From a virus (lineage: Duplodnaviria; Caudoviricetes): a DNA stretch of 64,000 nucleotides. Numbering within the stretch: the first letter of the stretch is position 1; each line of letters starts with the position of its first letter. Of this stretch, positions 16,112-58,614 are shown piece by piece. Location of the stretch: positions 32,001 through 96,000 of IMG/VR virus record IMGVR_UViG_3300021387_001774; one strand, written 5' to 3'. The position numbers and the translations under genes were made by a program. The notes beneath the pieces were generated by a model. It was given only the letters and a program-made list of their open reading frames with translations. It was not told the DNA's origin and made no database searches.

Positions 16112-16212
16112 ATTTCATTTCTTCCTTATGTTTATAGTAGTGTCATCTCTACTTCATTAATTATATTATTAATAAGATACAACGTATCTTTCATTAATAT
16201 AATATATAATTA
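16112..16212 (-). promoter_or_regulatory. Early promoter plus conserved structured leader, type 2
   Basis: Promoter at 16193-16212, hairpin, then GAAGTAGAGATGAcACTACTATAAACATAAGG shared with 50047 and 58519. Confidence 0.75.
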
Positions 16213-16639: not shown

Positions 16640-16706
16640 AACAATACCTCTGTAATAAATAATAGTAGAGTTATTTCTAACTCTCCATTAATATAATATA
16701 TAATTA
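16640..16706 (-). promoter_or_regulatory. Early promoter plus leader, type 3
   Basis: TAATTATATATTATATTAATGGAGAGTTAGAAATAACTCTACTATTA identical to the sequence starting at 30692. Confidence 0.75.
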
Positions 16707-30691: not shown

Positions 30692-30757
30692 TAATTATAT
30701 ATTATATTAATGGAGAGTTAGAAATAACTCTACTATTAACTATAAGGAAATATTTTT
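30692..30757 (+). promoter_or_regulatory. Early promoter plus leader, type 3
   Basis: First ~47 bp identical to the element at 16640-16706. Confidence 0.75.
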
Positions 30758-41401: not shown

Positions 41402-41437
41402 TTTAATTAAAGGTAGGACTCTTGTCCTACCTTTATA

Positions 41438-41603
41438 TTTATAACTACTGTTTAACTCAACTATTTAATTATATATTATATTAATGAAGTAACCTGTATA
41501 GGTGAAACATAATAATTATAAGAGGGATAATAAGAGAAATAAAACCCCACCTCAGTGAAGAGGTCTACTGATAAAAAGGGATACAAACACAAGGGAAGAA
41601 ACT
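41438..41603 (+). promoter_or_regulatory. Early promoter plus long structured leader, type 1 (copy A)
   Basis: Shares a 15-bp upstream box, the promoter and an identical 53-bp block (41503-41555 = 58056-58108) with copy B. Confidence 0.8.
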
Positions 41604-41987
41604 ATGGGAAAGTTTAACGATTTTATGCAGAAGTGTGACGACCTCAGAGTAAAAGAAAACAAAGAAAGAGAGCTTGAGAGGGCTCTCGAGAGATCAAAAG
41701 ATATATCCCGTTTAAAGGATATTTTTGATCCAAGTTATTGGGCGGATATGAGATGGGGATCATTTGACCTCATCCATATTCGCTGCAATACGGCGGAAAT
41801 GGTGAACGATTTCGAAAGAATCGTTGAAAAATTAACTGGCAGGAAAATCATGACAACGGAGCTCTGCAATGTATTTAAAAATACGTGTGGAGATCGTACA
41901 TTGTCAGTAGAGATCAAAACATCTTGTCGAGACATCGATAAGATTTTTGAAAGCATTTTGGAGTTTATCGATTTATATAAACTCTAA
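41604..41987 (+). CDS. Hypothetical cargo protein of type-1 cassette A
   Basis: 127 aa, somewhat GC-richer than background, flanked by conserved elements. Confidence 0.7.
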   Translation: MGKFNDFMQKCDDLRVKENKERELERALERSKDISRLKDIFDPSYWADMRWGSFDLIHIRCNTAEMVNDFERIVEKLTGRKIMTTELCNVFKNTCGDRTLSVEIKTSCRDIDKIFESILEFIDLYKL

Positions 41988-41998
41988 TTAACACCCGC

Positions 41999-42056
41999 AA
42001 AACAGAAAAACTCGAAAAGGTTTTTCTGTACCAGCTCTCCTCTGGTTTCTTTTTTT
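41999..42056 (+). terminator. Conserved 3' double-hairpin terminator of type-1 cassette (copy A)
   Basis: acagaaaaac..gtttttctgt + accag..ctggt + T-run; homologous to 58462-58519. Confidence 0.7.
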
Positions 42057-42098
42057 GTTTTTAATAAAATAGCAGGATTAATATCCTGCTATTTTTTT

Positions 42099-43457
42099 TT
42101 AAACCGTTTCTTCAGGTCTTTTAATTATATTAAAATCTTTAACTTCATCACCATCTTTATAAGCAGTACCTTTAAGATACTTACCATTATCACACAATTT
42201 CCACCAAGCTTTATTCTCGACAGAATACAATGTAATAAGATCGATAATTACTTGTTGACGAAGACGAATGAAGTGAGTCTTAATATTCTTAATTTTTAAA
42301 ATCATTTTAGTAATTGTATCATAATTCGAAATTTTTGATTTAGCTTCAGGTGTCTCTTGATCCAAATATTTATTAATTTCTGCAATAATTGTTTTACTCA
42401 TTTCAGTAATTAGTTTATGATCTTTTTTAGCTAATTCTTTATATTCTTTAAGAGTAGTTTCAAGTTTTTCTATATAACCACCTTTACCAACAACTTTCTG
42501 AGACATTTCGTAATATTCTTGGAAATATTGGTCGAGTTTGGCATAATTCAAATTATTTCCACTTCCTGTACTACCTTTAAAATAATTATGAATTAACATT
42601 TTTTCTCTAACTACTGCCGGACTTCCAAATACAATCATATGTGCAATTTCATCAACTTTTCCATTTCTTACAATATCGTCTAGAGTAAGTTGACTACCAA
42701 CCATATACAATGTAATTCCTGCTCCAGCTCGAGCTCCATCTGCTGGTCCAGCTTCATTAACAAGAATACCTGATGCATAAAGATTATCTACAGCATTTTT
42801 AAGTATACCTAATTTTCTAGTTTCATCATCTATAACTTTTGGATTAGATGGATTTAGCTTTGTAGCTTCATCGATTACAGTTTTAAAATACTCCAAACTA
42901 GCAGCAGAAGTTCTACTACTTTTAATTTTCAAACTACAGAATTTTTCAATATTGGGTCTAGTTAAAAGTCTATAAATAAGACTGTGATCATACTCTATAT
43001 TTCCAATATTAAGAGTTTGAATAGATTCTCCACCAGTAATCATATTTAATAAAATGTTACTATGAGTATTATTGAATCCTTTAAGACCACCATCTTTTTC
43101 AAACATCTTAAAGATAGAATTCATTTGAACTCTTTTCTTTTGTATGAAAATAATAACAGTCTTAATAAGAGAAACAACAAGTTCTATAATTTTAGAGAAA
43201 ATACTTACAAGGAAAGTCCAAATTTTTAAAAAGAATTCTTTAATTTTTGTTCCAAAAGTCTTTTTATCTTCTACCTTCTCATCTTCAGTAGATCTCATTC
43301 TATATGATTTTTTGAGAAAAGCTACATTTTCATAAAAGTTTTCTCTAGTCTGTTCCAATTTTTTAGAAGTAGTTGTAATACTACTAAAGCATTCCAAACT
43401 ATCATTCAAAAATTCTTCAAATGATAGATGTACATATTCTGTATTTGAAGCAACCAT
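42099..43457 (-). CDS. Putative internal head protein
   Basis: LSFE, DSLE, RSTE sites followed by IKEFFLKIWTFLVSIFSKIIELV helix, as in 1085..2521. Confidence 0.6.
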   Translation of the reverse strand: MVASNTEYVHLSFEEFLNDSLECFSSITTTSKKLEQTRENFYENVAFLKKSYRMRSTEDEKVEDKKTFGTKIKEFFLKIWTFLVSIFSKIIELVVSLIKTVIIFIQKKRVQMNSIFKMFEKDGGLKGFNNTHSNILLNMITGGESIQTLNIGNIEYDHSLIYRLLTRPNIEKFCSLKIKSSRTSAASLEYFKTVIDEATKLNPSNPKVIDDETRKLGILKNAVDNLYASGILVNEAGPADGARAGAGITLYMVGSQLTLDDIVRNGKVDEIAHMIVFGSPAVVREKMLIHNYFKGSTGSGNNLNYAKLDQYFQEYYEMSQKVVGKGGYIEKLETTLKEYKELAKKDHKLITEMSKTIIAEINKYLDQETPEAKSKISNYDTITKMILKIKNIKTHFIRLRQQVIIDLITLYSVENKAWWKLCDNGKYLKGTAYKDGDEVKDFNIIKRPEETV

Positions 43458-43466
43458 AAAAGTCTC

Positions 43467-45062
43467 CTAAAGTAAATTTCCTGGAACTTTTAATGTTTCA
43501 GGATCTTGATATAATTTATCTTTATTGGTTTTACAACCATTTTGATACAATTCTATAGTTCGCCTATTTAAGAAATAGTTTAGTTTTTTAGGACCTCCCC
43601 ATAACCCATAAAAAGCGTCTATATGATCAGTATATTCGATCCAATAATTTTTATTACCATGAATATGACCATGTAGATTTATTGTACCTGGTTTAGTAAC
43701 TATTGGACCATGTGATAAACAGAATCCTTTTAATAAAATAGGATCTTTATATACTTCGATGAATCCACATTTCTTTAAGAATTCTTCACTACATACATCG
43801 TTATTACCAACAATCATAATCTTTCGACCATGTAATAATCTACAAGTTTCAATCAATTCTTGTTGGGCTTTCTTATCATTTTCTGTAAAGAATTCTGATT
43901 CACTTAAATCTCCCAAAAATAAGAAAAGATCATTAGGTTTAACTACTTCATTATGCATTTGAATTATTTTCTTTGTAAATTCCATAGTTCCTTCAGCTTT
44001 TCTAAGTTCTTTAAGTAAGTGATAATCTGTAGAAACCCAAGGATTTAATTTTTCTACTTTATAAATAAGTTTATTTGGTTCTACATAAAATTTGAACTGG
44101 TTCTTTGGTGTTATTTGTTTGAAGAATAATGTTAATGATTCTCCAATAATATCCATTAGTTCATTGAGAATAATTGATGTAATATAAATTCTTTTAGTAA
44201 TAAATGTAATATTTTCCATCTGTTCTTCATTACATGCTGGTATAGTTTTCTTTAATTTGATACCATTATCATATGTAAATTTAGAAACATCTATATCTTT
44301 TAGAACTATATAAATATCATTTAAAGCTAAAACCATAGCTTTTATATTATCCCAGCTTTTAAATATTTTAGAAATAGAAACAAAATTTTCTTCTTTTATT
44401 CCTAATCTTTTTAATACAATACTTGTATTTTCTTTATTTGTAAATAATGTAGAATTTTGCTCATTAGTTAATGTTAGATTAACATTAGAGAAATCCAAAT
44501 TAACTAATGTATTTATAAAATTCATATATAGTAGACCAAAAGTCTTTATATCACAATTAAAGAAACTATATCTAGATTTTGAATCATAACAATTTTTATT
44601 TGAGGAACGAACTTCTGCATTAACTAAATTTTTATAAATAGTTTCTGCAGTATCTAATAATTCATTATCGATATCAGTAGTATTATTATAATAGAAACAA
44701 GACATAATCATTTTAAATTTAGATCTTATTTCTGTAAGAGAATCATAAGTATGATTAATAAGAGATTTGGCCCATTTAGTACTTTCTACAAAATGAGGTT
44801 TCTCTATACTACCAGCAGCTTCTCTAGATCCAATTTCTGGAGTAGTATCTACACCATTTCCAGTAGTATCAGGATTAGGATAATGAGTTTTATATACTAT
44901 AGAATATTTATCCGTAGGTCTACCGTCTTCAGTATATCTGGTTTCTTCTTCAATTTCTTCTTCTTTTTCTACAAGGATCATATCGTTTGATGGAAATCTA
45001 GAATTCTTATTTGTATTTATATCTACATTATCTAGACCAATATCGTTAAAAAGGTTATCCAT
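43467..45062 (-). CDS. Late protein with C-terminal calcineurin-like metallophosphoesterase domain
   Basis: STDYH, FLGDL, VGNND, LSHGP, NLHGHIH; acidic N-terminus ending GSREAAGSIE; late-type promoter at 45087-45098. Confidence 0.75.
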   Translation of the reverse strand: MDNLFNDIGLDNVDINTNKNSRFPSNDMILVEKEEEIEEETRYTEDGRPTDKYSIVYKTHYPNPDTTGNGVDTTPEIGSREAAGSIEKPHFVESTKWAKSLINHTYDSLTEIRSKFKMIMSCFYYNNTTDIDNELLDTAETIYKNLVNAEVRSSNKNCYDSKSRYSFFNCDIKTFGLLYMNFINTLVNLDFSNVNLTLTNEQNSTLFTNKENTSIVLKRLGIKEENFVSISKIFKSWDNIKAMVLALNDIYIVLKDIDVSKFTYDNGIKLKKTIPACNEEQMENITFITKRIYITSIILNELMDIIGESLTLFFKQITPKNQFKFYVEPNKLIYKVEKLNPWVSTDYHLLKELRKAEGTMEFTKKIIQMHNEVVKPNDLFLFLGDLSESEFFTENDKKAQQELIETCRLLHGRKIMIVGNNDVCSEEFLKKCGFIEVYKDPILLKGFCLSHGPIVTKPGTINLHGHIHGNKNYWIEYTDHIDAFYGLWGGPKKLNYFLNRRTIELYQNGCKTNKDKLYQDPETLKVPGNLL

Positions 45063-45150
45063 TTAAAAACTCCAAATAGTCAGGTATATAGATATGTTTT
45101 TGGAATAATATAAAAATAAGAGTGGTAACTTAATACCACTCTTATATATT

Positions 45151-48100
45151 TTAATAAGAACCATCTTCATCAGAATTCATAAACTCTACACTATCATAAT
45201 AGTGTTCTCGTTTATATTCTGGAGAATTTTTATCGATTGTGATCTGATTACCATCACGATCATAATCTACTAAACCATAAATCTTAATATTATCACCTTT
45301 ATATCTAGCAAGAGCATTATAATATTCTTCTATATTACCATTAAATCTTATATTATTTAAGAAGTCAAGTATAATAGAATCGATAGCTTTAGTATCACCC
45401 ATATCAAATTCACGTTTTGCTTCAGCATGAGTTAGAAGTTCGGTATACAAAGCAGACTTTCTCTGCATATCTCTACTGAAAGCTTCCATTTGATTCATAA
45501 TACCAAATATATCTACAAAGTTTCTATTTTCTTGTAAGAATTCTTCTATAGGTGTTTGATATGGTAACAATTGAGAGAATTTATGGATATTATCCAAAAT
45601 GTATCTAGCTTTATTCAAAGGATTACTTGTACTATTTAATTTATTTATAAACGTTTCATCTGAAACGGTCATTAATACTGATCTAAGTGTTTTACCATTT
45701 ACAGTAATATTCATAAGTTTTTCATTTAAAACAGATGATAAAATGAATGAATCCAAACCATTTTCAATCATCATTATGATAAAATCAGTAAGTGCAGTCA
45801 ATTTATCACTAACTATGTAACTTATAAGTTGTTGTAAGACGTATTCATGTAATGGGTAAATAAATGCATCTACATCGTAATTTACCATATCTAAGTTCAT
45901 CAATAGATCTGAACGTTCAGCACCAATGAACATCTTATTAGACTCTTTATCAAATGCTATACCACTATAATCACCATATGTAATATTAGTTTTAGGAATT
46001 TCTGTAAAATCATAAGAAGTAGATTTTAATCCGCAAACTTTAATTCCCATATTAGTATTTTTAGTAGACAACGCAAAATATCGTTTACTTGAACAACCAA
46101 GGATCCAATATCCAGCAGCTATATTAGTTTCAGTAAATACTCCATTATTATAAACTCTTATACCAAGAGGTTCATCAAAGTTAGTAGCAAAGAGTTTATT
46201 ATTTAAGTAATACATTTTCCATCCAGTCTTTTCGATATCGTTTTCATTCATCAAAGGAGTAAAGTTATTATTATCTACTCTATAAAGGCCTTTAACATTA
46301 TTGAATTTCCAATATACTGTTTCATTAGGATCAAATACATAATATTCACCATTTGAAATATCTTTTGTACTATCGAAATCATATATCGTATTAGTTTCAA
46401 TAACTTTATTATAATTTTTATTATCTCCGCTATCATGAACTAAGAAATTTCTTGGTGTAAGACGCATCAATGTAACATTATTGAAAGCTTTTAATTTTGT
46501 ATTATTTTCTACTTCTAATTCAAGCTGTTCTGGATATATATACATTTGAGATTCACTAGTAACTTGACCAGCAGATGTATGTAAACTAGTAACAAATGTA
46601 GCATTATATTCACCATCATTACGTATATAATGAATAGAATCTTTAGACACATAATTCGGAATAACCAATCCTGGTATATCACGTAATGGATTAGATTCTG
46701 TATAATGTGTCAATGTTGTAGCATTTGTAGAATCAGTTGAAGAATATATCTTTAAGCCATTACTATGTGTACCAAGGAATACATAATAAGCTGTAGAACT
46801 CTTTGTTTTAGTAACTTCCACAGTAATCGTAGTATTAGTCACTGGATCTTTTTGTTGTTCTTGTACTTGACCGGTTACTGTAACAGTACGAGTTGTTTCA
46901 GCCACATATGTAAATCTATCGGTCAAATTTAATATAGAAAATTGTTTACTTCTATTTACAAATACAGGATTACCTACATTACTTGTTGGATATATTACGT
47001 GACCAAAATAATTACATTTCTGGATAAACCATCCATCACCATTATTTGTAACAGCTAAGAATGATCCATTATTCCAACGTCTGAGGCCATTATTATTCTT
47101 ACCAAGCAATAAGATTACACTATAAGCATCAATACCTTTAACTTCCCAGTTACTATAATCTTTTATACCTGTAGATTCAATTCTATTTCCTGTCCAATAA
47201 TATAATTCATCTGTATCTCTAACAAAGAAAACTACACCATAGAATTCAAATATATCTATCCAATTACCATCAGAAATATTAGTATTGATTACTTCTGACT
47301 TATCAGAATTAAGACGTTTTATACCATTGTTTTTAGTGTTTTCAGTTCCACCAAAGAACATTCCTCTAGTAGAATTAAATATAACTTTCCAGTCTCCAGT
47401 TATTACATTTGTATACTGAAGTCTTTCTAAGTTTTCATTATAACCAAAAATACCAAACTTATCAAATCCTTCAAATCTTGTAGTAAGTTTATCTTTATAA
47501 GGATAGAACATTTTATAGTCTAATCTACTTCTATCGTTAATTCCTTTCAAGAAATTAATTTCATTCCAATAGTAAGATTTAAGATAAGTTTTCAAGAATT
47601 CTTTATCATATTCTAATAAAGATTTTACAAATCCTATATCAGAAATTTCTCTAGCAAACATACTCATACAAAGATAGAAAAGATTAGCTATTGTATCTTT
47701 TTCAGCTATCTCATCTAGCTTCATAGCTTTAGAAGCCACATAAGATTTATAGATAAATACTAATACTTTAATATTCTCTAATAGAGATTCCTTTGTAGAA
47801 CTATTGAAAAGTTTAATCAAACCTGTTGGTTCAGTAATATCTGAAGCAGCAAATACGTAAGAAGATAATTCTAAGAAAGAATGAGAAATACTTGCATTAG
47901 CAATGCTTTTCTTATTCATGAAATTATAGAAATATGTTAACCATTTTATGATTGTATCTCTCATAGTAGTCATAGGAATATTAGCTGCATATCTTATGAT
48001 TGCTATAATTTCTTGATTAATAGCTGGATTAGCATCCAAGAATGCATCCATTTCACTTACTGTAGTAGGATTAGAAACATTTACTGATCCAGGAGTTATT

Positions 48101-49986
48101 GGAACACCATTTTCATCAGTAGCAACAGGAAGATCGCTATTAGATGGATCTACTTGGAAAGTTAATGCTCCTAATGCATTCTTTATATCGTCTATATTTT
48201 TAGCAGGATCTAATAAAAATCCTTCCATTTTTTGTGTATAATCATAGGCGGTTCGATCTATAGCATCCTGAAGATCAAACATTGCTTGAACACCCATGGA
48301 AGCACCTATAATACCTTTAGCCTTATCAAGTGATGCTTTAAGTGTCGTCATCGTCGGAATTTTGCACCTCTGGTAAAAGGCTTCATTAACCATACGATTA
48401 TTACCAAATATAGCATTAGAAGAAAGATAAATATAAATCTCTTTAATATTTTTATTATTTAATGTTATATATTCTGTATCGTCATATAAGAATGCTTTAG
48501 CTGAAGCACCTACTGCTCCAGTTACTTTTTTCTTATACTTTACACTTTCTGGAAGATCATTTTGTTTAGGATATCTATTACGTGATACTTTGTAAACTTC
48601 TGTAGATCCACCTTTGATAGCTGCTGATGATAGAACACCATATCTATCCATTTGAGTTTTACTCATATTGGCTCTAAGTGTTTCTATCTTTTCATTTACT
48701 TTGAGACGAGCTTTTTCAGAATCACTAATATAATCTTTAGAAAGATCATAGATATCACTATTCATCTGAGCTTCAAACATAGCATTTTGTGCTTGTTCTT
48801 TAAGTGCAGCTTTATCATTATTTACATTCTCTAAGTATCGTTTATCAGATTCTGTAGTTTGATGTGATTTAAAATCAGGCATCATAGTTTTACAATCACC
48901 TTCAGAGAATGCAAAACGTTTATTATATTTATCATCAGTAGATCCAAAATACTTTGGTAATAAATAATCTCCTGGAAGATCTTTAAAGAATTTCTCTATC
49001 TTAGAAACAGTTACGTATGTATATGAATTAATAATGAGAACTGCTAAGTTAGATACAATCATTTCTTCCATACTAGATATATCATTATCTAACTGATTTA
49101 CTACTGATAAATTATCTAAATAATCGTCTCTTTTTGTATAATCATCAGGATAAGCATCTTTTATATAATTTATAGTATTTAAATAATTTAAACGTTCTCC
49201 TTTATATTCTTCTATAGAAGCTATAACCTTTTTATAAATATAAAAAAGATTATCTGCACAAGAATTAGTAGAACAGTTAACTATATCACTTTCAAGATAT
49301 TTATATTCTTTATTGTATTTTATTCCATATTGACTATCAATAAATTCTAGAGTATGTACCCAGTCTCTAGAAAGAGCCATATTACGAATATAATGCTTAT
49401 CATAAGCTAAGTCAGCTCCAGCTTTATATAAAGCTTTAATAGTTTCACAGAATACTTTATCAGGAATAAATAAAGAAGAAACTAAGTTCTTAGTAAAATC
49501 TTCTATAATATTACTGATATAATTTATTGCTGCGTTCTCCAATTGTTTTATAGTATCGTTTAACATAGTCTTTAAAAGATTAGTTAAACTACCTAATTTA
49601 GAACCTAAGAAACCATTAAGTTTATTTAATAAACCATCTAGACCAGGTATTTTACCTAATAAACCAGAAGCTAATGTATTAAGTTTTGCTATACCATCTG
49701 ATAAGAATGTACCTACTTTTCCACTAACAGAAGAAGCTAAGTTTTTAGCTTTATCCTGTAGCGATGCAGCAGAAATTCCTCCAGACATAATACTATTTAC
49801 AAAACCAGACTTACCTTTTTCAGTTTCTTCTACTTCGTTATCATATAAAGATAAAGTATTATTAAATGGTTTCGCAGGATCAAATGCTCCACCAACACCT
49901 GGTAAATTACTCCCTATACTTGAAATCGTGTTGGAGCTACCAAGGTTTAAATTACTAACATCAAATGAAATGGGATTATCAGCCAT
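45151..49986 (-). CDS. Large virion protein (1611 aa): helical N-terminus plus beta-propeller-like repeats; putative baseplate
   Basis: Repeats TN(V/I)xxGxW and NNG(I/L)KR; late-type promoter at 50006-50017. Confidence 0.55.
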   Translation of the reverse strand: MADNPISFDVSNLNLGSSNTISSIGSNLPGVGGAFDPAKPFNNTLSLYDNEVEETEKGKSGFVNSIMSGGISAASLQDKAKNLASSVSGKVGTFLSDGIAKLNTLASGLLGKIPGLDGLLNKLNGFLGSKLGSLTNLLKTMLNDTIKQLENAAINYISNIIEDFTKNLVSSLFIPDKVFCETIKALYKAGADLAYDKHYIRNMALSRDWVHTLEFIDSQYGIKYNKEYKYLESDIVNCSTNSCADNLFYIYKKVIASIEEYKGERLNYLNTINYIKDAYPDDYTKRDDYLDNLSVVNQLDNDISSMEEMIVSNLAVLIINSYTYVTVSKIEKFFKDLPGDYLLPKYFGSTDDKYNKRFAFSEGDCKTMMPDFKSHQTTESDKRYLENVNNDKAALKEQAQNAMFEAQMNSDIYDLSKDYISDSEKARLKVNEKIETLRANMSKTQMDRYGVLSSAAIKGGSTEVYKVSRNRYPKQNDLPESVKYKKKVTGAVGASAKAFLYDDTEYITLNNKNIKEIYIYLSSNAIFGNNRMVNEAFYQRCKIPTMTTLKASLDKAKGIIGASMGVQAMFDLQDAIDRTAYDYTQKMEGFLLDPAKNIDDIKNALGALTFQVDPSNSDLPVATDENGVPITPGSVNVSNPTTVSEMDAFLDANPAINQEIIAIIRYAANIPMTTMRDTIIKWLTYFYNFMNKKSIANASISHSFLELSSYVFAASDITEPTGLIKLFNSSTKESLLENIKVLVFIYKSYVASKAMKLDEIAEKDTIANLFYLCMSMFAREISDIGFVKSLLEYDKEFLKTYLKSYYWNEINFLKGINDRSRLDYKMFYPYKDKLTTRFEGFDKFGIFGYNENLERLQYTNVITGDWKVIFNSTRGMFFGGTENTKNNGIKRLNSDKSEVINTNISDGNWIDIFEFYGVVFFVRDTDELYYWTGNRIESTGIKDYSNWEVKGIDAYSVILLLGKNNNGLRRWNNGSFLAVTNNGDGWFIQKCNYFGHVIYPTSNVGNPVFVNRSKQFSILNLTDRFTYVAETTRTVTVTGQVQEQQKDPVTNTTITVEVTKTKSSTAYYVFLGTHSNGLKIYSSTDSTNATTLTHYTESNPLRDIPGLVIPNYVSKDSIHYIRNDGEYNATFVTSLHTSAGQVTSESQMYIYPEQLELEVENNTKLKAFNNVTLMRLTPRNFLVHDSGDNKNYNKVIETNTIYDFDSTKDISNGEYYVFDPNETVYWKFNNVKGLYRVDNNNFTPLMNENDIEKTGWKMYYLNNKLFATNFDEPLGIRVYNNGVFTETNIAAGYWILGCSSKRYFALSTKNTNMGIKVCGLKSTSYDFTEIPKTNITYGDYSGIAFDKESNKMFIGAERSDLLMNLDMVNYDVDAFIYPLHEYVLQQLISYIVSDKLTALTDFIIMMIENGLDSFILSSVLNEKLMNITVNGKTLRSVLMTVSDETFINKLNSTSNPLNKARYILDNIHKFSQLLPYQTPIEEFLQENRNFVDIFGIMNQMEAFSRDMQRKSALYTELLTHAEAKREFDMGDTKAIDSIILDFLNNIRFNGNIEEYYNALARYKGDNIKIYGLVDYDRDGNQITIDKNSPEYKREHYYDSVEFMNSDEDGSY

Positions 49987-50046
49987 TGTTATACTCCATA
50001 AAATATATAAACTTGTCGTCCTTTAAGAAAATGAAAAAAAACAGGT

Positions 50047-50136
50047 TAATTATATATTATATTAATGAGTGTGTTACACTTATTATTAATTATATTATCG
50101 AAGTAGAGATGATACTACTATAAACATAAGGAAGAA
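50047..50136 (+). promoter_or_regulatory. Early promoter plus leader, type 2
   Basis: Shares GAAGTAGAGATGATACTACTATAAACATAAGG with 58519 and (one mismatch) 16112. Confidence 0.75.
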
Positions 50137-50637
50137 ATGAAAATGACTAAAGAAGAAAGAAAAGAACGTAAGAGAAAATATGATAAGAAATATTATGAAT
50201 CTCATAAAGATGAAAAGAAGAAATTTTATAAGGAACATAAAGATGAACTTAACGAAAAAAGTAAGATGTATTATGAGACTCATAAAGATGAAAGGAAAAA
50301 GTATTATGAGACTCATAAAGACGAGTATAATGAAAGATCTAAAAAGTATAAAGAGATCCATAAAGAAGAAAAGAGAGAATATTCAAAGAAGTATTATGAA
50401 TCTCATAAAAATGAAATAAAAGAAAGATCTAAAAAATATAATAAGATCCATAACGAAGAAAGAAAAGAGTATTATAAGAAGTATTATGAAACTCATAAAG
50501 AAGAAAGGAAGAAATATCGTGAGGCTCATAAAGAAGCAAGAAAAAAGCATAATAAAAAGTATTATGAAACGCATAAAGATGAGCTTAAAGAAAAAAGGAA
50601 GAAGTATCGTGAGGCTCATAAAAAAGAAACAGTTTAA
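50137..50637 (+). CDS. Protein made almost entirely of KKYYE(T/S)HKEE repeats
   Basis: 11/15-aa repeats; DNA units aagtattatga.actcataaaga. Confidence 0.7.
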   Translation: MKMTKEERKERKRKYDKKYYESHKDEKKKFYKEHKDELNEKSKMYYETHKDERKKYYETHKDEYNERSKKYKEIHKEEKREYSKKYYESHKNEIKERSKKYNKIHNEERKEYYKKYYETHKEERKKYREAHKEARKKHNKKYYETHKDELKEKRKKYREAHKKETV

Positions 50638-50656
50638 GTGTCTTCCTCAAAATTAG

Positions 50657-50696
50657 AATAAAGATGGGGAATACATCCCCATCTTTATTTTTTTTT
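50657..50696. terminator. Bidirectional terminator
   Basis: aataaagatgggga-ataca-tccccatctttatt plus T-run. Confidence 0.8.
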
Positions 50697-53600
50697 TATT
50701 TTGTTAATACATTCATAAGAACTTTAAGTGAATTATCCTTTATCTTAATCAAAGATTTATGGAATAATTTACTTGTTTTATCCGTAGATGTATAAGATCT
50801 AGCATGACTTATTACATCTTGAATAATAGTTCTTATTCTCTTTGTGAAATATTCTAATTCTAGTTTAAAGTTTACCATCATAGATTTCAAGAAATAAGGA
50901 ATGTCTGAGAAGAAATCATAAGTAGTTTCTTTCAAGAAATAGTCCTTATCTGGATCGAATTCACCACCAAGTTTTATCATATATTCTTCATCAACTAATA
51001 TTACAAAATCCTCAAGAGTACCATTTGTACTAGTTATTTCAAAATATGTAGAATCAGTAAATTCTAATACACCTTCGATAGGTTCTATATAATTACCTGT
51101 TGGTGTTATTATACCATTCTCATTTTTATAAACTTGAATTTTATTATCATTTTCTTTCACAAGCATTAAATAATAATTTCTTTCGTGTAAAGTTTTATCT
51201 ATACTTAATATAGGTTTATCAAAATTATTTAATTTATAATCATAATCATAAATTTTATGAGTATTATCATCAATTGATGCATCGATATAATTGTCTTCTA
51301 TATCTACATATTTAAATAAATTACTTATTTTTCCATCTTCATCAAAATTGTTTACACCATATTTTAATACACTTCTATCATTTGCTAATGAACCGGAAAT
51401 ATTTAAATTGAATATAGCGAATCTTGATCCTGTGCTACTCATTAATTGTGAACTTGGATCAGTTTCCATAATATCATATTTTATTACAAACCGTATATAA
51501 TCGTTATTATTAATGGTATATTTTCCAACATATCGTGAAAATCCATAAGTTAATTCATGCATTGGTATTGATGGATCTTGATCATCAGCTGTAGGATTAT
51601 CGCTATTAATATTAAAACTATAAAATTTTTGTAATTTTGGTGTATCTATTGTATCATTTTCGTTTGGAGAATCATAATAAACAAAGTTTATATTATTTTC
51701 CGAATTTTTATAAGCTAAAAAACATCTATTAATTTCGTCTTTATACGCAAATATAATACTATCTGGTAAAGAATCTGAATATTCCTTTGGTAACATTATA
51801 AGTTGGTTCGAATTATTTAAAGTATAAAAAATACTTTTTCCACTCATTGTATAATCTTGTGTATTTGTTGTTATACAGTGTAGTATTAAACAACCAGTAT
51901 TAATTCCATCTTTTGTTTCTATTAAATCTTTATAGTCAAAAACTGTTGGATCATCAAACCCGTTTATTTTAATAAAATCTTTTTCAGTACAATCTATAAC
52001 ATCTGGATCAGAAATACCTTTAAAACCACTATATCTATAAGTTGAAGTATATTGATTTAATGTGCCCTCTATTTTATTAAATTTCTTATTAAACATGTAA
52101 ACTTCTGTTTTTTGATGTGGAGCTTCGGTTTCTGTATAATCTATACTTATAATCGTTGTGTCAGAATCAATATTAGAATATTTTTTATTATAATTATCAT
52201 CAAAAGTTGGGCTATTAATTGATGGAGCTATATCTGTACACTTTTTGAGGTCTCTTGTAGAATAATCATAATAATAAATTTGAAATTTATTTTTATCTGG
52301 ACCATCTTTAGTTATTTGATTACTAAAGAAAACATTGTCACCAAACATATAAACTTCATGAACGGTATCTTCGTTATTTGGAATTAACGTTATTGGAGCC
52401 CATGTTTGATCTTCATTCTTTAGATAATCAATTATTAACCCATCATCAAAAACAAACAATTTACCATTTGAATATTCTAGTTCAGAATCACCACCAACAT
52501 TGACACTAAATAACAATACTGGTTCATCGACTCCTTCTTCGAATCTATACATGTTCATACCAGTTTCGGTTTTTGTTTTAAGATATGTATAAGTTTTACC
52601 ACTATAAATATCTCTACCTGAACATAATGAATCACCACTAACAAGTGTATGAATCAATTTAGAACCAAATGTAGCTTTCACATATTCATTAGTATTTATT
52701 TCACCAACTTGAGACTTAGTATAATAATCCATATCTGGTTTAAAATCATTTTCTTTACCATCTGGATTTTGTGTATAATATGCTCCAATCCAAGAATCAA
52801 TAGTTCTAAAAGCTAAATCATAAGTAGATTCATAATATGTTATGCTTGGATCAAAATTTTTCTTTAAGTAATATTCTTTTCCTTCAACAAATGTTATTAC
52901 TCCAGGTTCTGGATTAAGTAGATAACCATTATCTGTTGATGCTAATATTTCATCATCATTTTCATCTGTAGTATAATAATCAAAAACATTTGATTCATAT
53001 TCAGTAACTATTAAATGAGCATCTGGATCATCTACTAAATCTTTCAATGATATTGCAGTATAATCATCATTATTTGAAGTATCTCCATAACAAACAAAAT
53101 ATTTACCATTGTTGATCTTATCTATATTTGGAGTAGTATCAGCTGTTTCAGAGAATCGAATATTCGTCTTATCAAAATCATCTTCATCAGCTTGTTCATA
53201 TCTATTTTGTCTATGTATATAGAAATTACCTACAGTATCTGGAGTAACAGTAGCTTCATCGATATTTACTTGTGTATATAATGTGTTTATAAAATCTTCA
53301 TCAGTACATAATACATATTCAACACCAGAATAATCATACACCTTTTTATTGTATGTGTAACCATCAGAGAATATCTTATTATTATCTGTACCGTCTTCTA
53401 ATGAATCATAAGGTTTCTCTATCCAAATACCACCATCAAAGATATAATATACGTCTCCTTCTTGAGGACCGTTATTGATCTCTTCTTGAGTAAGCGGAAC
53501 ATATGATTCGGTAGGTGTTCCATTCATTTTATAATATTCTACTCCAGGTTGTTTACCAGAACTCTTATCAAGAAGCTTATTAAATACATCTTTCATTACT

Positions 53601-56600
53601 GTAGGATGTATATAATAATCAACTCCTTTCTGAGGTCCTTCTGCTTTTTCTTCTGGAGTTAATGGAGTATAAGTATCTGTAACTTTAAAATCACCGTTCT
53701 CTTTTTCAGCTTTAACATATTCTACACCAGAATCCTCTATACGTTTATGGAAATATGTTTTCTGATATCCAAATGTATTATCATTCTTGAAATGATACAA
53801 TAATCTGTAAGGTACATAATAATCCTTAGTAATATCAAACGCATAAAGTGTTTCACCACCAATACCAGCATCAGCATATGGAATACCAGTATCAGGATCT
53901 GGTTGATCTAGTTTTATATAATAACCTACACCATCTACAGGATTTGGAGTTTCGTCTTTATTTATTTTCACAAATTCGAAACCAAGATTAAAATCATCAT
54001 CTGCACATGGAGTGTATGTATTAGCTATTGTATAGAAGTTATTTATATCATCGATTACTGTTGTACCTTCTCTATAATAATCAACCAATACATAGTTAGT
54101 TCCTTCAGCATTAGCTGCATAGAGAGGTTTACCTTCTCTTTCTTCTACAGGAACCGAAGAAAATTCAACAAGATCACCAATAAAGTATTCAGAAGGAACA
54201 AAAGTACGAGAATCATAACCTACAGTTTTAGCTTCAGGTTCAATATGATCGTAGTATTCTTTATCTGGAAGTTCTTTTGCTACATAATATTCTACACCAT
54301 CTTGAATACCTTGAGCTTTAGTTTCAGAATCGATCTGATTATACTTTGGTGTAAGTACAAAGTCATCAGGATTATCTACACTGGCTTTAACCATTTCCTT
54401 TCTTGTTTCTGAACCACCACCTTCTACTAATTTATAGATTTCTTCCTTTTCTACTTTGAAAGTCTGTGGATTGACTTCATATAATCCAAATCCTTCTTGG
54501 AAATCAGCTATATCTATTGTAGAATCTAATAATTCGCTAGTTTCAATTAATATATAATCACCGGAGTCATTATCATAGGAAGCATATTGTTTATTTGGAT
54601 CAATTACATCTAACGTCAAAGGATATGGTCCAAGTTCAGTAAAACTAATAGGATTTTTCAATTCTTCATCAGTATATGGTTCATATTCTGTATCAGAAAC
54701 TTTCTTATAGTATACGACATCACTCCGTGGTCCATTATCATACTCTTCTTGAGAAAGGTTTTCATAAACATCAAAGTTTTCAACAACCTCTTTTTCAAGA
54801 TAGTATTCAATATCAGGATTATATCCTTCAATCATTTCTGAACCATCTACTTTATCATAATAAGCTTCTGATTTAGTAATTTCTTCGGAAGTAACACTAT
54901 TATTTTGAATAACAAGAAGATTTCCTGCACCAAGAATTTCATTACAATCTTCAGAGCGCATTTGATTAATGATATTGAAGTTCTCATCCAGTTTGAAAAT
55001 ATAATCTTGATTTGTAGCAAAATAGTAATAACCATTTACATACACAAGATTTCTAATTTCATTATCTGGATTATTAGGAATAAAGAATAACTTACCATTA
55101 GCAACCTTTAAGAAGCAATTAATCTTAGGAAGTTCTTCTTCAACATGTACAAGCTTATGAATCTTAGAAGGATCCATCATAAATCCTTCAGTAGCTACAG
55201 CAAGTGTATAATCCAAATACTTACCATCATTAGCAAACTCTACATATCCATAATTCATATCAGGATTGTATACACCATGTTTATCGATATTATTGAATGA
55301 TGTTACTTTACCTATAAACCATGAACCAATTACACCAAATGTAGTACCAATACATCCATAATAATCGATATTAGGATCAGGACCATTCATCTTTTCTTCT
55401 ACTGAACACAAGTGTAATGACTTTATACTTGGATAGAAATATTTAGTTCCTTCTACATAACCTGCAGCCAATTCTTCAGGAGTTAATAATACATATTTAT
55501 CTACAATTCCAGTACTATCAGAATTATCATTTACGAGATTAGAAAGCTTACTCATATAATATGATTTATATGTAGTATTACGATTATTTATGACTTTTGT
55601 CGTTGTATATTCTACAGGATGTACTGTATTTGTATTTAAATCATAATAATAGTTTCCACCTTCATAAACTGTAAAGTAAATCTTATTCTCAAAAATAAGT
55701 GCATCGGAGATATCATAATCTTTCATAGCACTTACAATTTTGAAATTAGCAAACTTCATTGATGGATCATTAGGATTGTCTGTATACAACATCTTATGAC
55801 CATATCTAAAGAAGTAATACCTATTCTCTATAGGATTATGAAGTACTTTGAATTCTTCTTGGAAATTACGTTTATTTGTATAATCGAGAGCTCTTTCTAC
55901 CTTAGTAAGTTCATTATCAAGAGCAGGATTATCATATGTAAAATACTTATTGTCTTGGAAAATAACTTTAAGGGTATTAAAGTTTCCTCCATTAGTCATA
56001 GCAACACTTTCTCCATAAGAAATCTTACCATTATCCAAATTAGTAGAGAAATCTTTACGAATAGCTATAACATTTGTCTTATCAAATGTTTCAAATAATT
56101 TACACCAAGAACCACCAACTACACCAGTTCTCTCTACAACAAATGATTGTGTATTCATTTTACATACACCAACATCCGTCGCAAGATACACAATTTTACC
56201 GTTTACTATAGCATCATAACAAACATTAAAGAGATTATTCTGATTAATCTTTTCAGTAAATGAATCACCAGAAAGTTTATCTCTAGAATTAAATCTATAG
56301 ATACCATCTGATTTTAAAATCAAGATATCATAATCTGTGACTTTAACTACTTTATAAATAATAGAATTGTGTTCTACTATTGGAGTAAGCAGAATATCTG
56401 CATCTTGTGTATAAGAGTTATCGTTTATATCAGTAAATGATTCATCGTTAGTGAATGTATTTTCTACAGTTTCACTAGATATTTCAGTACCGTATTTAAA
56501 CTGAGAAGGTACAACTTTTGATTTAGAGAATGAATTCTCTACAGCAAACATATTTTCATTCTTAGCCATAAGACTAAGATCACCAACGAATGAAGGATCA

Positions 56601-57916
56601 GAAATATCAACAACAGTTTCACCCTTAGTATACTTAACAGGATCACCATTATCATACTTCTTATTAAGTTTTACACCTTCAAGGTAATTCTTCTTAACTT
56701 CTGTATCAGTATTAGAAATAATAAATCCAGATACAATATCCATAAGTTCATTCATTTTGACTTCATCAGGATTGTATATAGATTGCACATACTTTTCTTC
56801 ACCGATATTAGAAATTTCAGAATAAAACTGTTTTTCTTTTGAATCAGTTTCAAAATCCTTAAGTTCATCAGATCTAGCATTAAGAATAGAATTAGTTTCT
56901 GTTTTCTCAGAAGTCTTCTGATTTATATCATAAATATTATCGTCAGCATGCTCAAAATAAGCAACATCCTTATTATCATGATACATGAGACCTCTAGCAA
57001 ATTCAGAAATACCTTTCTTAACTTCATGATCATTGAATTTCTTAGAACTTGTTAAGAAGTAACCTTCTCTACCAGATTCTGTATTAGAAGGAATATTTGT
57101 CTTTACTTTAATATAGACATTGCCATTCTTTATATCACTTCTAGAAAGAAGCGTATTAAGAATCATATCGAAGTCATAAGTATTTATATCGAATTCTTTT
57201 CTATTGTTATATGTCTCTGAAAGAACTTTAAGATTAAATGGAGATTCTTTTGATTGATATTTAACGATAATGTTATAACCAAAATCACCATTCTTACCAA
57301 GAGATAACCATGTAATACCTTTAGAAGTATACAAGAAGATATCGAGAATAAGATTAGAGTTTATATAATCTTCGTTAGTAAAACCTTCATAAGTATTTAC
57401 TTTAGTAATATGAAGAATGTTATCCAGTTCAGTTATAAGTGATTTATCAGAAATCTTTCCACCAAACCATCTTATACCTAACTCAGAAGCAAGCATATTA
57501 ATACTTCTATCCCAATCTTCTACCGCATTAGTATCTACTTTATTAGAAATAACATTATCCGTTACACAACTATGATTAAAGAGATTTGATTCATAAGGTG
57601 TAACGAATGTAGTAATCTTATTCTGGAAATTCTCTATAGCATCATTAAGACGTTCAGTAATATGAGAATCTACATCAATTTTAAAATGATCTAATACATA
57701 TTTAAAATGCTTAGTACGTTCATAAATAGTCAAAAGATTAACTTTCATTGCATTACGAGTATCAGTAATCTTTTGAAAGTTAGAATCGATCAATTCAGAG
57801 AGTTTATTAAAATATTCTATTAACTCATTAAGTGTCGTCAATACATTATTTCTTGACGCTAACTTGGTTAATGGGGCTCTATAGAACTCTCCTTTAAGTT
57901 TATCATTAATAACCAT
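50696..57916 (-). CDS. Giant (2406 aa) acidic repeat-containing virion protein, putative tail fibre
   Basis: Repeats YxxLTxEExxxGPxxGVxYY and YxxCxDxDF; N-terminal coiled coil; late-type promoter at 57957-57968. Confidence 0.55.
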   Translation of the reverse strand: MVINDKLKGEFYRAPLTKLASRNNVLTTLNELIEYFNKLSELIDSNFQKITDTRNAMKVNLLTIYERTKHFKYVLDHFKIDVDSHITERLNDAIENFQNKITTFVTPYESNLFNHSCVTDNVISNKVDTNAVEDWDRSINMLASELGIRWFGGKISDKSLITELDNILHITKVNTYEGFTNEDYINSNLILDIFLYTSKGITWLSLGKNGDFGYNIIVKYQSKESPFNLKVLSETYNNRKEFDINTYDFDMILNTLLSRSDIKNGNVYIKVKTNIPSNTESGREGYFLTSSKKFNDHEVKKGISEFARGLMYHDNKDVAYFEHADDNIYDINQKTSEKTETNSILNARSDELKDFETDSKEKQFYSEISNIGEEKYVQSIYNPDEVKMNELMDIVSGFIISNTDTEVKKNYLEGVKLNKKYDNGDPVKYTKGETVVDISDPSFVGDLSLMAKNENMFAVENSFSKSKVVPSQFKYGTEISSETVENTFTNDESFTDINDNSYTQDADILLTPIVEHNSIIYKVVKVTDYDILILKSDGIYRFNSRDKLSGDSFTEKINQNNLFNVCYDAIVNGKIVYLATDVGVCKMNTQSFVVERTGVVGGSWCKLFETFDKTNVIAIRKDFSTNLDNGKISYGESVAMTNGGNFNTLKVIFQDNKYFTYDNPALDNELTKVERALDYTNKRNFQEEFKVLHNPIENRYYFFRYGHKMLYTDNPNDPSMKFANFKIVSAMKDYDISDALIFENKIYFTVYEGGNYYYDLNTNTVHPVEYTTTKVINNRNTTYKSYYMSKLSNLVNDNSDSTGIVDKYVLLTPEELAAGYVEGTKYFYPSIKSLHLCSVEEKMNGPDPNIDYYGCIGTTFGVIGSWFIGKVTSFNNIDKHGVYNPDMNYGYVEFANDGKYLDYTLAVATEGFMMDPSKIHKLVHVEEELPKINCFLKVANGKLFFIPNNPDNEIRNLVYVNGYYYFATNQDYIFKLDENFNIINQMRSEDCNEILGAGNLLVIQNNSVTSEEITKSEAYYDKVDGSEMIEGYNPDIEYYLEKEVVENFDVYENLSQEEYDNGPRSDVVYYKKVSDTEYEPYTDEELKNPISFTELGPYPLTLDVIDPNKQYASYDNDSGDYILIETSELLDSTIDIADFQEGFGLYEVNPQTFKVEKEEIYKLVEGGGSETRKEMVKASVDNPDDFVLTPKYNQIDSETKAQGIQDGVEYYVAKELPDKEYYDHIEPEAKTVGYDSRTFVPSEYFIGDLVEFSSVPVEEREGKPLYAANAEGTNYVLVDYYREGTTVIDDINNFYTIANTYTPCADDDFNLGFEFVKINKDETPNPVDGVGYYIKLDQPDPDTGIPYADAGIGGETLYAFDITKDYYVPYRLLYHFKNDNTFGYQKTYFHKRIEDSGVEYVKAEKENGDFKVTDTYTPLTPEEKAEGPQKGVDYYIHPTVMKDVFNKLLDKSSGKQPGVEYYKMNGTPTESYVPLTQEEINNGPQEGDVYYIFDGGIWIEKPYDSLEDGTDNNKIFSDGYTYNKKVYDYSGVEYVLCTDEDFINTLYTQVNIDEATVTPDTVGNFYIHRQNRYEQADEDDFDKTNIRFSETADTTPNIDKINNGKYFVCYGDTSNNDDYTAISLKDLVDDPDAHLIVTEYESNVFDYYTTDENDDEILASTDNGYLLNPEPGVITFVEGKEYYLKKNFDPSITYYESTYDLAFRTIDSWIGAYYTQNPDGKENDFKPDMDYYTKSQVGEINTNEYVKATFGSKLIHTLVSGDSLCSGRDIYSGKTYTYLKTKTETGMNMYRFEEGVDEPVLLFSVNVGGDSELEYSNGKLFVFDDGLIIDYLKNEDQTWAPITLIPNNEDTVHEVYMFGDNVFFSNQITKDGPDKNKFQIYYYDYSTRDLKKCTDIAPSINSPTFDDNYNKKYSNIDSDTTIISIDYTETEAPHQKTEVYMFNKKFNKIEGTLNQYTSTYRYSGFKGISDPDVIDCTEKDFIKINGFDDPTVFDYKDLIETKDGINTGCLILHCITTNTQDYTMSGKSIFYTLNNSNQLIMLPKEYSDSLPDSIIFAYKDEINRCFLAYKNSENNINFVYYDSPNENDTIDTPKLQKFYSFNINSDNPTADDQDPSIPMHELTYGFSRYVGKYTINNNDYIRFVIKYDIMETDPSSQLMSSTGSRFAIFNLNISGSLANDRSVLKYGVNNFDEDGKISNLFKYVDIEDNYIDASIDDNTHKIYDYDYKLNNFDKPILSIDKTLHERNYYLMLVKENDNKIQVYKNENGIITPTGNYIEPIEGVLEFTDSTYFEITSTNGTLEDFVILVDEEYMIKLGGEFDPDKDYFLKETTYDFFSDIPYFLKSMMVNFKLELEYFTKRIRTIIQDVISHARSYTSTDKTSKLFHKSLIKIKDNSLKVLMNVLTK

Positions 57917-57990
57917 AAAATACTCCTTATGGATAATATTTAAATGAATTTACGTATATTATCTTGTCATTTTTATTAATGTTTATGTAT

Positions 57991-58152
57991 TTTATAACTA
58001 CTGTTAAACCTGACCTCTTAATTATATATTATATTAATGAAGTAGGTCGTATGACTGAAACATAATAATTATAAGAGGGATAATAAGAGAAATAAAACCC
58101 CACCTCAGAGAAGAGGTCTACCGAAAGGAGATATAAACACAAGGGAAGAACT
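57991..58152 (+). promoter_or_regulatory. Early promoter plus long structured leader, type 1 (copy B)
   Basis: Homologous to 41438-41603, with a covarying first hairpin. Confidence 0.8.
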
Positions 58153-58452
58153 ATGGAAAAAACATATTCGATAATGCCGAATGGTATTAAAATACAGGAT
58201 GACCTGTTACCCATGTTATCATGGAGCAGGTGCTCCGGTGATGCCGGTTATAACGGCAGGTCATGGGACGGTTCAGAATCATGGACCGTCCTGGTTGAAG
58301 CACAATGCGGTGAAAACCGCATTGTAGCTTTGGGATATGAATCCCGAGATCCTGATGGAAATTGGGATGTCGGCGTATATCCCGACCACGGCATCTTCGT
58401 AGGTGAAGATGCCTACGAAGATGCCTGTGCTTGCTGGAGGTTCGATTGGTAA
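58153..58452 (+). CDS. GC-rich hypothetical cargo protein of type-1 cassette B
   Basis: 99 aa; 33/60 G+C in 58201-58260 against a strongly AT-rich background. Confidence 0.7.
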   Translation: MEKTYSIMPNGIKIQDDLLPMLSWSRCSGDAGYNGRSWDGSESWTVLVEAQCGENRIVALGYESRDPDGNWDVGVYPDHGIFVGEDAYEDACACWRFDW

Positions 58453-58461
58453 GCATAGGTT

Positions 58462-58519
58462 AAAACAGTAAAACTCCATAAGGAGTTTTCTGTACCGGAT
58501 TGCTACGGTTTCTTTTTTT
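58462..58519 (+). terminator. Conserved 3' double-hairpin terminator (copy B)
   Basis: acagtaaaactcc-ataa-ggagttttctgt + accg..cggt + T-run. Confidence 0.7.
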
Positions 58520-58614
58520 AATTATATATTATATTAATGAAGTACGTTATACTTATTATTAATATTAATTGAAGTAGAGATGATACTACTATAAACATAA
58601 GGGAGAAAAGAAAT
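58519..58614 (+). promoter_or_regulatory. Early promoter plus leader, type 2
   Basis: As at 50047 and 16112. Confidence 0.75.

Follow-up and report, generated by a model that had tools for sequence, protein, structure and literature searches.

What kind of element surrounds two unrelated small genes of one phage with nearly the same non-coding DNA on both sides? The question was raised by a 64,000-nucleotide stretch of DNA (referred to here as the window), which corresponds to bases 32001-96000 of the 263,686-bp IMG/VR virus record IMGVR_UViG_3300021387_001774, a 29.5% GC jumbo myophage genome estimated to be 94% complete. A sequence-only reading of the window had noted two regions, 41438-42056 and 57991-58519 (here cassettes A and B), in which open reading frames (ORFs) of 127 and 99 aa lie within a common frame, and had proposed that foreign genes are slotted into a reusable promoter-leader-terminator unit. 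The similarities that it described were confirmed. On the 5' side, both regions contain an upstream box, an early promoter, a hairpin with a GTAT loop, an identical block, a CCTC/GAGG hairpin and a Shine-Dalgarno (SD) region, AAACACAAGGGAAGAA. Stems of the GTAT-loop hairpin differ between the two copies (ACCT/AGGT and GGTC/GACT), and the identical block is at least 52 nt long; this 52-nt word occurs at only these two sites in the window and was never found in shuffled sequences. On the 3' side, both have ACAG..CTGT, ACC..GGT, TTTC and a T-run and fold as two adjacent hairpins. The two ORFs are indeed unrelated (no blastp similarity), and the GC content of about 50% that had been noticed belongs to ORF B (48%), the most GC-rich of 211 ORFs.

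Both copies are real, but two is an undercount. The genome contains four near-identical leaders, detected by blast (genome positions 73469, 90022, 246059 and 257434, loci A-D), and three diverged leaders, found by reading downstream of all promoters (246665, 219110 and 230304, loci E-G), as well as five 3' elements. A covariance-model scan of the genome returned exactly these seven leaders and nothing else. We refer to this genome as G000, to its relatives and contigs by G and L numbers, and to its seven leader copies as loci A-G. Viral and metagenome contigs were pattern-scanned and then searched with the covariance model, which yielded 18 further instances in related metagenomic phages: two in the near-identical IMG/VR contig 3300021431_002513, and others in relative G002, in seven further metagenome contigs and in European Nucleotide Archive (ENA) contigs reached via homologues of the enclosed (cargo) proteins. 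In total, there were 25 leader instances, 22 of them distinct, and 12 unrelated cargo families in this phage clade, so the reusable frame itself stood. We consider it probable that regions A and B are two of seven early units built from the same portable non-coding modules, whose genes are shuffled in the manner of the promoter early stem-loop (PeSL) cassettes of T4-type phages.

Early promoter, structured leader and 3' element

The promoter 18-mer TTATATATTATATTAATG is located at 41469-41486 in cassette A and at 58022-58039 in cassette B (both on the plus strand), and approximately 50 copies of it are distributed over both strands of the genome. It matches the early consensus AAATATATATTAT-(6N)-G+1 (core TATATATTAT-N6-G+1) of phage AR9, which was experimentally defined and is read by the virion RNA polymerase (Lavysh et al. 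2017, PMC5312081). Two RNA polymerase (RNAP) beta-like ORFs are present in the genome; the one compared with cultured phages (859 aa) is closest to those of Bacillus phages AR9 and PBS1 (31% identity), with those of Listeria and Staphylococcus jumbo phages and of phiR1-37 next. The phage genome yielded no sigma factor, and matches to sigma-70-type promoters showed no enrichment over shuffles. By analogy with AR9, these sequences may be called early promoters, and transcription is predicted to start at G 41486 in cassette A and at G 58039 in cassette B.

The upstream box (TATAACTACTGTTTAAC at 41440-41456 in A, TATAACTACTGTTAAAC at 57993-58009 in B, plus strand) had been taken for one end of a capture cassette, as its TACTGTT is the reverse complement of AACAGTA at the right end. 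This is literally so for copy B, although the match is only 7 nt long and copy A has AACAGAA. CTGTT is positioned 15-17 nt before the promoter 18-mer (16 nt in cassette A) in 12 of the 50 promoters, against about 0.05 expected by chance at any one position, and eight of these 12 promoters have other leaders and no 3' element. Because the box has a fixed position on 12 promoters, most of which lack this leader and trailer (the 3' element), it is a positioned, -35-like promoter element and not a terminal repeat or a cassette end. We also considered it as a divergent late promoter; this was ruled out, since the giant gene on the other strand has its own GACA-N6-TATAC motif nearer its start and since the box often follows terminators of same-strand genes.

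The GACA-N6-TATAC motif, which resembles the AR9 late consensus AACA-(6N)-TA, lies at approximately 57945-57975 (minus strand), before the 2406-aa virion gene, and in relatives it likewise stands ahead of the giant gene. It was also found directly downstream of the D and G trailers (genome positions ~258200 and ~231250, plus strand). In several cassettes, a C or G homopolymer run of 6-12 nt, whose length varies between phages, fills the gap from the CTGTT box to the promoter core (L104, L183, L109 and L161; genome positions 257415-257425 and, on the minus strand, 2290-2300).

The leader that follows the promoter is approximately 85 nt long and consists of three adjacent hairpins, P1 to P3, behind a 5'-proximal hairpin, P0, in the order P0, spacer, P1, 1-nt linker, P2, P3, RGAUA and SD. 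P0 (ACCT-GTAT-AGGT at 41492-41503 in A, GGTC-GTAT-GACT at 58045-58056 in B) occurs in nearly all copies with variable stems, including GGTC/GACT, AGATC/GATCT, AGGATT/AATCCT and AGGTTT/AAACCT, the latter two representing a compensated change. The leader core of cassette A, labelled 'R1' (41524-41583, plus strand), scores 90-102 bits with covariance models R1 and R2. Its P1 pairs GGG (41524-41526) with CCC (41545-41547) around a conserved 18-nt loop, ATAATAAGAGAAATAAAA; the linker C, P2 (ACCTC 41549-41553 with GAGGT 41560-41564) and P3 (from CTAC at 41565, then GGATA) follow, and the SD region AAGGGAAG with the ATG of cargo A occupies 41591-41606. In cassette B, the core spans 58077-58133 (plus strand; 107.8 bits with R2), with P1 at 58077-58079 and 58098-58100, P2 at 58102-58106 and 58113-58117, and a P3 of the form CUACC-GAAA-GGAG with a bulged A, followed by AGATA. 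Over all leaders, the 3-bp P1 holds a conserved, purine-rich loop of 18-19 nt with TARGAGAAATRAA and occurs as GGG:CCC, GTC:GAC, ACC:GGU, CCG:CGG and GCG:CGC. P2 (5 bp) was found in eight versions, and P3 is built on an invariant CUAC, has a bulged A and often closes a GAAA loop.

The sequence-only reading had reported compensatory changes, and we checked them with a covariance model and pair counts. A first model, R1, was discarded: in its MAFFT alignment, the leader types were offset by one column, and only 64.8% of cells were paired. The replacement, R2, was built from equal-length leaders and aligned all leader types correctly. Of the 218 pair cells in the R2 alignment (22 distinct sequences), 99.5% hold standard pairs, compared to 72% in shuffles (none of 500 reached the observed value) and 32-53% in slid controls. 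The covariation score was 0.74 (0.21 for shuffled sequences, 0.00-0.16 for slid controls), and 8 of the 10 pairs change on both sides. A separate segmentation, with only one 1-nt loop indel allowed, gave 98.9% paired positions against 61% in shuffles. RNAalifold independently recovered the same helices with P3 extended and left the SD and AUG unpaired. G-U pairs in P2 and P3 are compatible with the sense strand only, which places the structure on that strand. Rfam had no gathering-score match in the window, and at E-values up to 5 only chance-level matches outside the leader and trailer were obtained; an antisense partner for the conserved loop was not found elsewhere in the genome. These comparisons indicate that the leader is a conserved sense-strand RNA structure with no Rfam counterpart.

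The genome has the two-hairpin 3' element in five copies, each following a cargo gene (A, B, C, D and G), and nowhere else. In cassette A it occupies 42002-42056 (plus strand; T1 at 42002-42029 and T2 at 42030-42046, then TTTC and a T-run), and in cassette B 58465-58519 (plus strand; T1 with a bulged T at 58465-58493 and T2, ACCG-GATTGCTA-CGGT, at 58494-58509, again with TTTC and a T-run). We collected 15 distinct versions, all of which have T1 and T2 (-13 to -21 kcal/mol) followed by UUUCUUUUU. T1 has 11-13 bp and usually a bulged U, with a conserved lower stem and a covarying top; T2 is ACCG/CGGU with a loop that is usually GAUUGCUA. With a stable predicted hairpin and an immediate U-run, the element has the features of an intrinsic terminator, although in a terminator scan T2 of copy A passed and that of copy B, with only 4 bp, failed. 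An exact 27-nt core of the element was found in five viral contigs. It is identical even in phages that have no other nucleotide similarity to G000, where it lies behind genes with other leaders; the element also follows such genes in L063-L065 and in relative G002. An exact 32-nt leader word gave no match in viral contigs. In orthologous cassettes whose synonymous sites are saturated relative to G000 (proportion of synonymous differences 0.66-0.73), the promoter is 100% and the trailer 87-96% identical, compared to 68-76% for the cargo and 65-74% for the leader. For example, the 3' element of cassette A is 96% identical in L183, in which the cargo is 76% identical.

Cargo genes and their probable exchange

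None of the seven cargo proteins of G000 or the other cargo tested had a Pfam or PHROG match. All-against-all blastp linked only the expected orthologues and left 12 unrelated complete cargo families of 62-316 aa, with no similarity between families at an E-value of 0.01. Cargo A (41604-41987, plus strand; 37% GC) and cargo B (58153-58452, plus strand) have ratios of nonsynonymous to synonymous substitution (dN/dS) of 0.05 and 0.14, respectively, and both are therefore real genes. AlphaFold2 models had predicted local distance difference test (pLDDT) scores of only 54-56; at this low confidence, A was mostly helical and B mostly beta, and the ESM Atlas provided no usable lead on cargo function.

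The view of the cargo as foreign was not borne out. Homologues of cargo A, B, D and G (the latter a 248-aa protein) form a handful of metagenomic-contig clusters; where contigs were examined (for A, B and D), they resemble related phages. Orthologues of cargo A share 78-80% identity and occupy the same locus in related phages; cargo B has homologues in four clusters only, and the one with examined context lies at this locus in related phages. The homologues pointed to no bacterial source. GC content at third codon positions (GC3) averages 0.39 in leader-bearing genes (0.41 for cargo A) and 0.20 in the genome as a whole; six of the seven genes reach or exceed the 95th percentile, and the top three ORFs in GC content are cargo B, D and F. 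The same trend was observed in relatives. Because it persists between orthologues with saturated synonymous divergence, the elevated GC3 looks maintained and does not look like a trace of recent import. Besides the genes behind this leader, for which GC3 values of 0.39-0.48 were noted, GC-rich early genes were found at genome positions 107913-108242, 247659-247994 and 253374-254633, suggesting a separate codon-usage class among early genes.

Cargo swaps and empty sites were sought at orthologous loci, and both were found in related phages. At locus A, G000 and L183-185 have the 127-aa gene with the trailer. In a near-identical contig (L043, L104), the promoter and leader there are unchanged, and what follows is a gene for a 62-aa coiled-coil protein with a plain terminator only. 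At locus G, G000 has a leader of the F/G type and the 248-aa gene, and L113 has a leader of the A type and a 135-aa gene; the trailer and downstream flank are the same in both. The swaps at these two loci begin at the promoter or leader. Another example involved the cassette beside B, in which a 274-aa gene and, in close relatives, an unrelated gene of approximately 130 aa lie between the same leader (of a second family, described below) and the same terminator. The junction between the tail-tube gene and the giant gene is empty in G002/L010 (108 nt apart), contains two cassettes in G000 and has a single different opposite-strand gene in four other relatives. Cargo family D was found behind this leader (G000, L191/192), behind another leader (L193) and in an operon without the leader (L194). 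As either the leader or the trailer can be present while the other is missing, the two are separable modules.

The leaders themselves have been homogenised. Those at loci A-D of G000 all have GGG:CCC and the same spacer, and those at loci A and B of contig 3300021431_002513 and at A, B and G of contigs of its lineage all have GTC:GAC and a different P0. Leader copies are closer within a genome than between orthologous loci of different genomes, and in copy D, the P0 is that of A and the P3 region that of B and C. Taken together, the swaps, the empty site, the different leaders of family D and the homogenised leaders suggest recombination and gene conversion among repeated modules. Exact 25-nt direct repeats at 58020-58044 and 58520-58544 would permit a mini-circle product.

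In the mechanism that we propose, each unit would begin with an AR9-type early promoter, presumably read by a virion-packaged multisubunit RNAP and often provided with the -35-like CTGTT box. The 5'-proximal hairpin and the ~85-nt structured leader, which would leave the SD and AUG single-stranded, would be followed by a small ORFan and, in five of seven units, by the conserved two-hairpin intrinsic terminator. The repeated modules may act as homology patches for homologous recombination and gene conversion, which would homogenise the copies and replace, insert or delete the enclosed genes, as proposed for PeSLs; a dedicated recombinase would not be required. The leader may be bound by a factor acting in trans, for which a small ligand is less likely than a protein, and this factor would set the translation or stability of some early mRNAs whose codons are unusually GC-rich; a factor-binding site is favoured because the SD is exposed and an expression platform is absent. 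The 5' hairpin and the 3' double hairpin may stabilise and insulate the transcript within oppositely oriented late virion operons. A bolder version, which we regard as tentative, is that the leader represents a new class of cis-regulatory RNA responding to a phage or host factor or a small ligand and defines a post-transcriptional regulon of early genes with GC-rich codons in rumen AR9-related jumbo phages. With the terminator, it would form a portable 'expression socket' by which recombination, possibly through mini-circles, tries new genes.

Several observations weigh against this interpretation. The segment replaced at locus A also takes in the 3' element and part of a neighbouring 452-aa gene, so module edges do not always coincide with recombination breakpoints. 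Starts, 3' ends and timing of transcription are all assigned by analogy with AR9, and the near-identity of the 3' element across diverged lineages could reflect recent exchange, not constraint. As regards the leader, the pair counts come from a model-fitted alignment, and with many related copies among the sequences, significance is overestimated by the shuffle control. A fold with helices as short as P1 (3 bp) and P3 (2-4 bp) would need tertiary contacts or a bound factor. Neither a terminator nor an SD-sequestering helix that could serve as an expression platform is visible, and a regulatory role is therefore inferred only. The leader was also absent from G001 (99% complete), G005 (70% complete), AR9, LPJP1 and PB50, and thus is a narrow-clade feature; a single marginal match in G001 turned out to be a terminator plus a promoter.

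Alternative explanations and relation to known systems

The simplest alternative is plain duplication, in which an ancestral gene was copied with its leader and terminator and the coding parts then diverged beyond recognition, leaving remotely homologous cargo. The copies are indeed dispersed direct repeats on one strand, and two other leader families of this genome (families 2 and 3, see below) precede recognisable paralogues. Divergence of this kind is difficult to reconcile with leaders that are 93-100% identical over 50-130 nt next to ORFs dissimilar at an E-value of 0.01 in 12 families, with one cargo family behind different leaders and with differing cargo at orthologous sites; the low-confidence models, A mostly helical and B mostly beta, point the same way. 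We give this explanation the least credence of all. Hardly more probable is integron-like, site-specific capture, with T1 and its extrahelical T as an attC-like site, the upstream box as its partner site and a phage recombinase. Immediately 3' of the ORFs, T1 forms a conserved hairpin with a bulged base, the sequence of its lower stem is kept even in phages without other nucleotide similarity, and the box has the 7-nt reverse-complement match to the T1 edge. However, tyrosine (PF00589) and serine (PF00239) recombinases, both of which were detected in control genomes, were absent from the 94%-complete genome. Moreover, every cassette has its own promoter, the box keeps a fixed spacing to 12 downstream promoters, of which 8 have neither this leader nor the trailer, leader and trailer each occur without the other, and swap boundaries fall at no fixed site. 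A dedicated capture system with inverted ends is not supported, the left box being a promoter element.

Two further alternatives concern the function of the non-coding parts. The cassettes could insulate the opposite strand, with the complements of P2 (followed by the T-rich complement of the conserved loop) and of T1 (followed by CTGTTTT) stopping late antisense readthrough. A terminator scan flagged the minus-strand complement of P2 with a GGGGTTTTAT tail in both A and B, and the complement of T1 in B, and both cassettes lie within minus-strand virion gene blocks. This leaves unexplained the covariation of P1 around its loop and the conserved CUAC and RGAUA of P3; G-U pairs become A-C mismatches on the other strand, and five of the seven leader copies are in plus-strand early regions (219-258 kb). 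We find insulation very improbable as the main function. The leader could also be a riboswitch through which early genes respond to a host metabolite, and would then be a new class, given the lack of an Rfam match. Conserved loops and junction nucleotides, covarying stems, a length of ~85 nt and a position directly before the SD of several unrelated genes are all in keeping with this possibility. On the other side, there is no terminator or anti-SD platform, the SD is unpaired in the consensus, the ORFan cargo carries no metabolic signature, and P1 closes no multi-helix junction, the three serial hairpins being more typical of protein-binding leaders. A riboswitch is therefore unlikely, although the most plausible of the four. 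All of them are less likely than PeSL-like shuffling of modules whose leader binds a factor.

PeSLs are regulatory cassettes of T4-type phages for which homologous recombination between motifs is the proposed mechanism (Arbiol et al. 2010, PMC2839356; Comeau et al. 2014, PMC4122927). The likeness to them, already suggested by the sequence-only reading, was supported by the composites found here, in which a terminator stem-loop is joined to an early promoter and extends up to the SD and start codon of the next gene. For example, the hairpin with a 12-bp stem at 41408-41435 (plus strand), identified by the terminator scan behind the upstream 114-aa gene, forms such a terminator/promoter composite with the promoter at 41469. 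Another composite is located at 58494-58519/58522, and many other promoters are arranged in this way; with approximately 50 promoter copies per genome, most are upstream of ORFans. As with PeSLs, gene insertions, deletions and replacements between close relatives fall between motifs, although one swap overruns into the neighbouring gene. In contrast to PeSLs, which have a sigma-70-like promoter for the host RNAP, the promoter here fits the AR9 virion-RNAP consensus, the lineage is that of AR9/phiKZ-related jumbo phages and not the T4 group, and a covarying ~85-nt leader and a sequence-conserved two-hairpin terminator are added to the frame, so that both gene ends are conserved.

Morons of lambdoid and other phages (Hendrix and colleagues) are autonomous promoter-ORF-terminator units between genes that are adjacent in a relative, usually in temperate phages and expressed from the prophage. 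Classic morons are not known to share a common leader or terminator. The autonomous unit at the tail-tube/giant-gene junction that is empty in G002 resembles a moron; unlike morons, the units described here share non-coding parts and reside in a probably virulent jumbo phage. With integrons, they have in common a bulged hairpin directly 3' of diverse small ORFs and a variable cargo in a constant frame, and differ in that no integrase was found, a separate promoter accompanies each cassette, copies are scattered and not arrayed, and a T-run of the kind seen in intrinsic terminators closes the trailer. Early units of AR9 and PBS1 have the extended AT-rich promoter TATATATTAT-(6N)-G+1 (PMC5312081), and G000 shares with these phages the early promoter, two multisubunit RNAP gene sets and an AACA/GACA-N6-TA late-type motif before virion genes. 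It differs from them in the shared leader, for which the covariance model found nothing comparable in AR9, and in an RNAP beta of only ~31% identity. A PeSL-like or moron-like modular system is the best reading of the frame, with the structured leader and the conserved two-hairpin terminator as novel additions.

If this is correct, promoter/terminator-mediated shuffling would not be limited to T4-type phages and would also operate in an RNAP-carrying jumbo lineage. The covarying leader, without an Rfam counterpart and present on at least 12 unrelated ORFans, would be a new testable RNA; a common leader implies common post-transcriptional control, and it may provide a handle on early genes (likely involved in host takeover or anti-defence) of uncultured jumbo phages. 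As a compact natural expression cassette, the promoter-leader-terminator frame could also help to engineer such phages.

The host phage, neighbouring genes and other shared leaders

Gene annotation of the window placed both cassettes inside minus-strand virion gene blocks, which include genes for the tail tube, a phiKZ-type sheath and giant ORFs of 2811, 1611 and 2406 aa (32312-40747, 45151-49986 and 50696-57916, minus strand). The giant ORFs had no Pfam match, and the tail-tube-adjacent homologue in relatives varies between 2180 and 2842 aa. The tail sheath protein found no match by tblastn in 50,697 GenBank phages, and megablast of both loci against GenBank phages returned nothing. Sample names of the related contigs point to rumen studies. 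The cassettes belong to an AR9/phiKZ-related jumbo phage, which is probably virulent.

Between cassette A and the convergent 452-aa gene (42099-43457, minus strand), the terminator scan detected a second hairpin (42066-42095), which is apparently a bidirectional terminator and is the sole terminator retained at locus A in the relative with the 62-aa cargo. The C-terminal two-thirds of the 452-aa protein could not be aligned to the otherwise 96%-identical relative L043, and no relatives of this gene were found in viral contigs. It is hypervariable and possibly involved in host recognition. Outside the window, at genome position 217433 (plus strand), an early-type promoter stands directly before an apparent tRNA gene and not an ORF.

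Two other shared leaders were observed. The second ('family 2') precedes the 274-aa ORF in the cassette beside B (58522-59439, plus strand), whose replacement in close relatives was seen in an alignment with L009 and in gene tables of L187-190. It occupies 58522-58614, consists of a hairpin of the GATAC-GTTG-TATC type followed by GAAGTAGAGATGATACTACTATAAACATAAGGAAGAAA, and occurs in approximately nine copies, including those at 16187-16211 (minus strand) and 50050 (plus strand) and about six more in the genome. It is mostly found before paralogues beginning with MTKEE or MAEKKREY, and also before unrelated ORFs at 58615 and at genome position 3009. The third leader (GAGAGTTAGAAATAACTCTACTATT; 16681-16705 on the minus and 30693-30717 on the plus strand of the window, genome positions 197518, plus, and 236554, minus) precedes four paralogous small genes beginning with MI(F/I)KD.NGK. 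In addition, a non-coding block (TTTGACCTGTTTAAGG.ATTA) was detected both in the 3' untranslated region of the D-family gene of L191 and in the 5' leader of another D-family gene, that of L193, suggesting that more portable modules exist.

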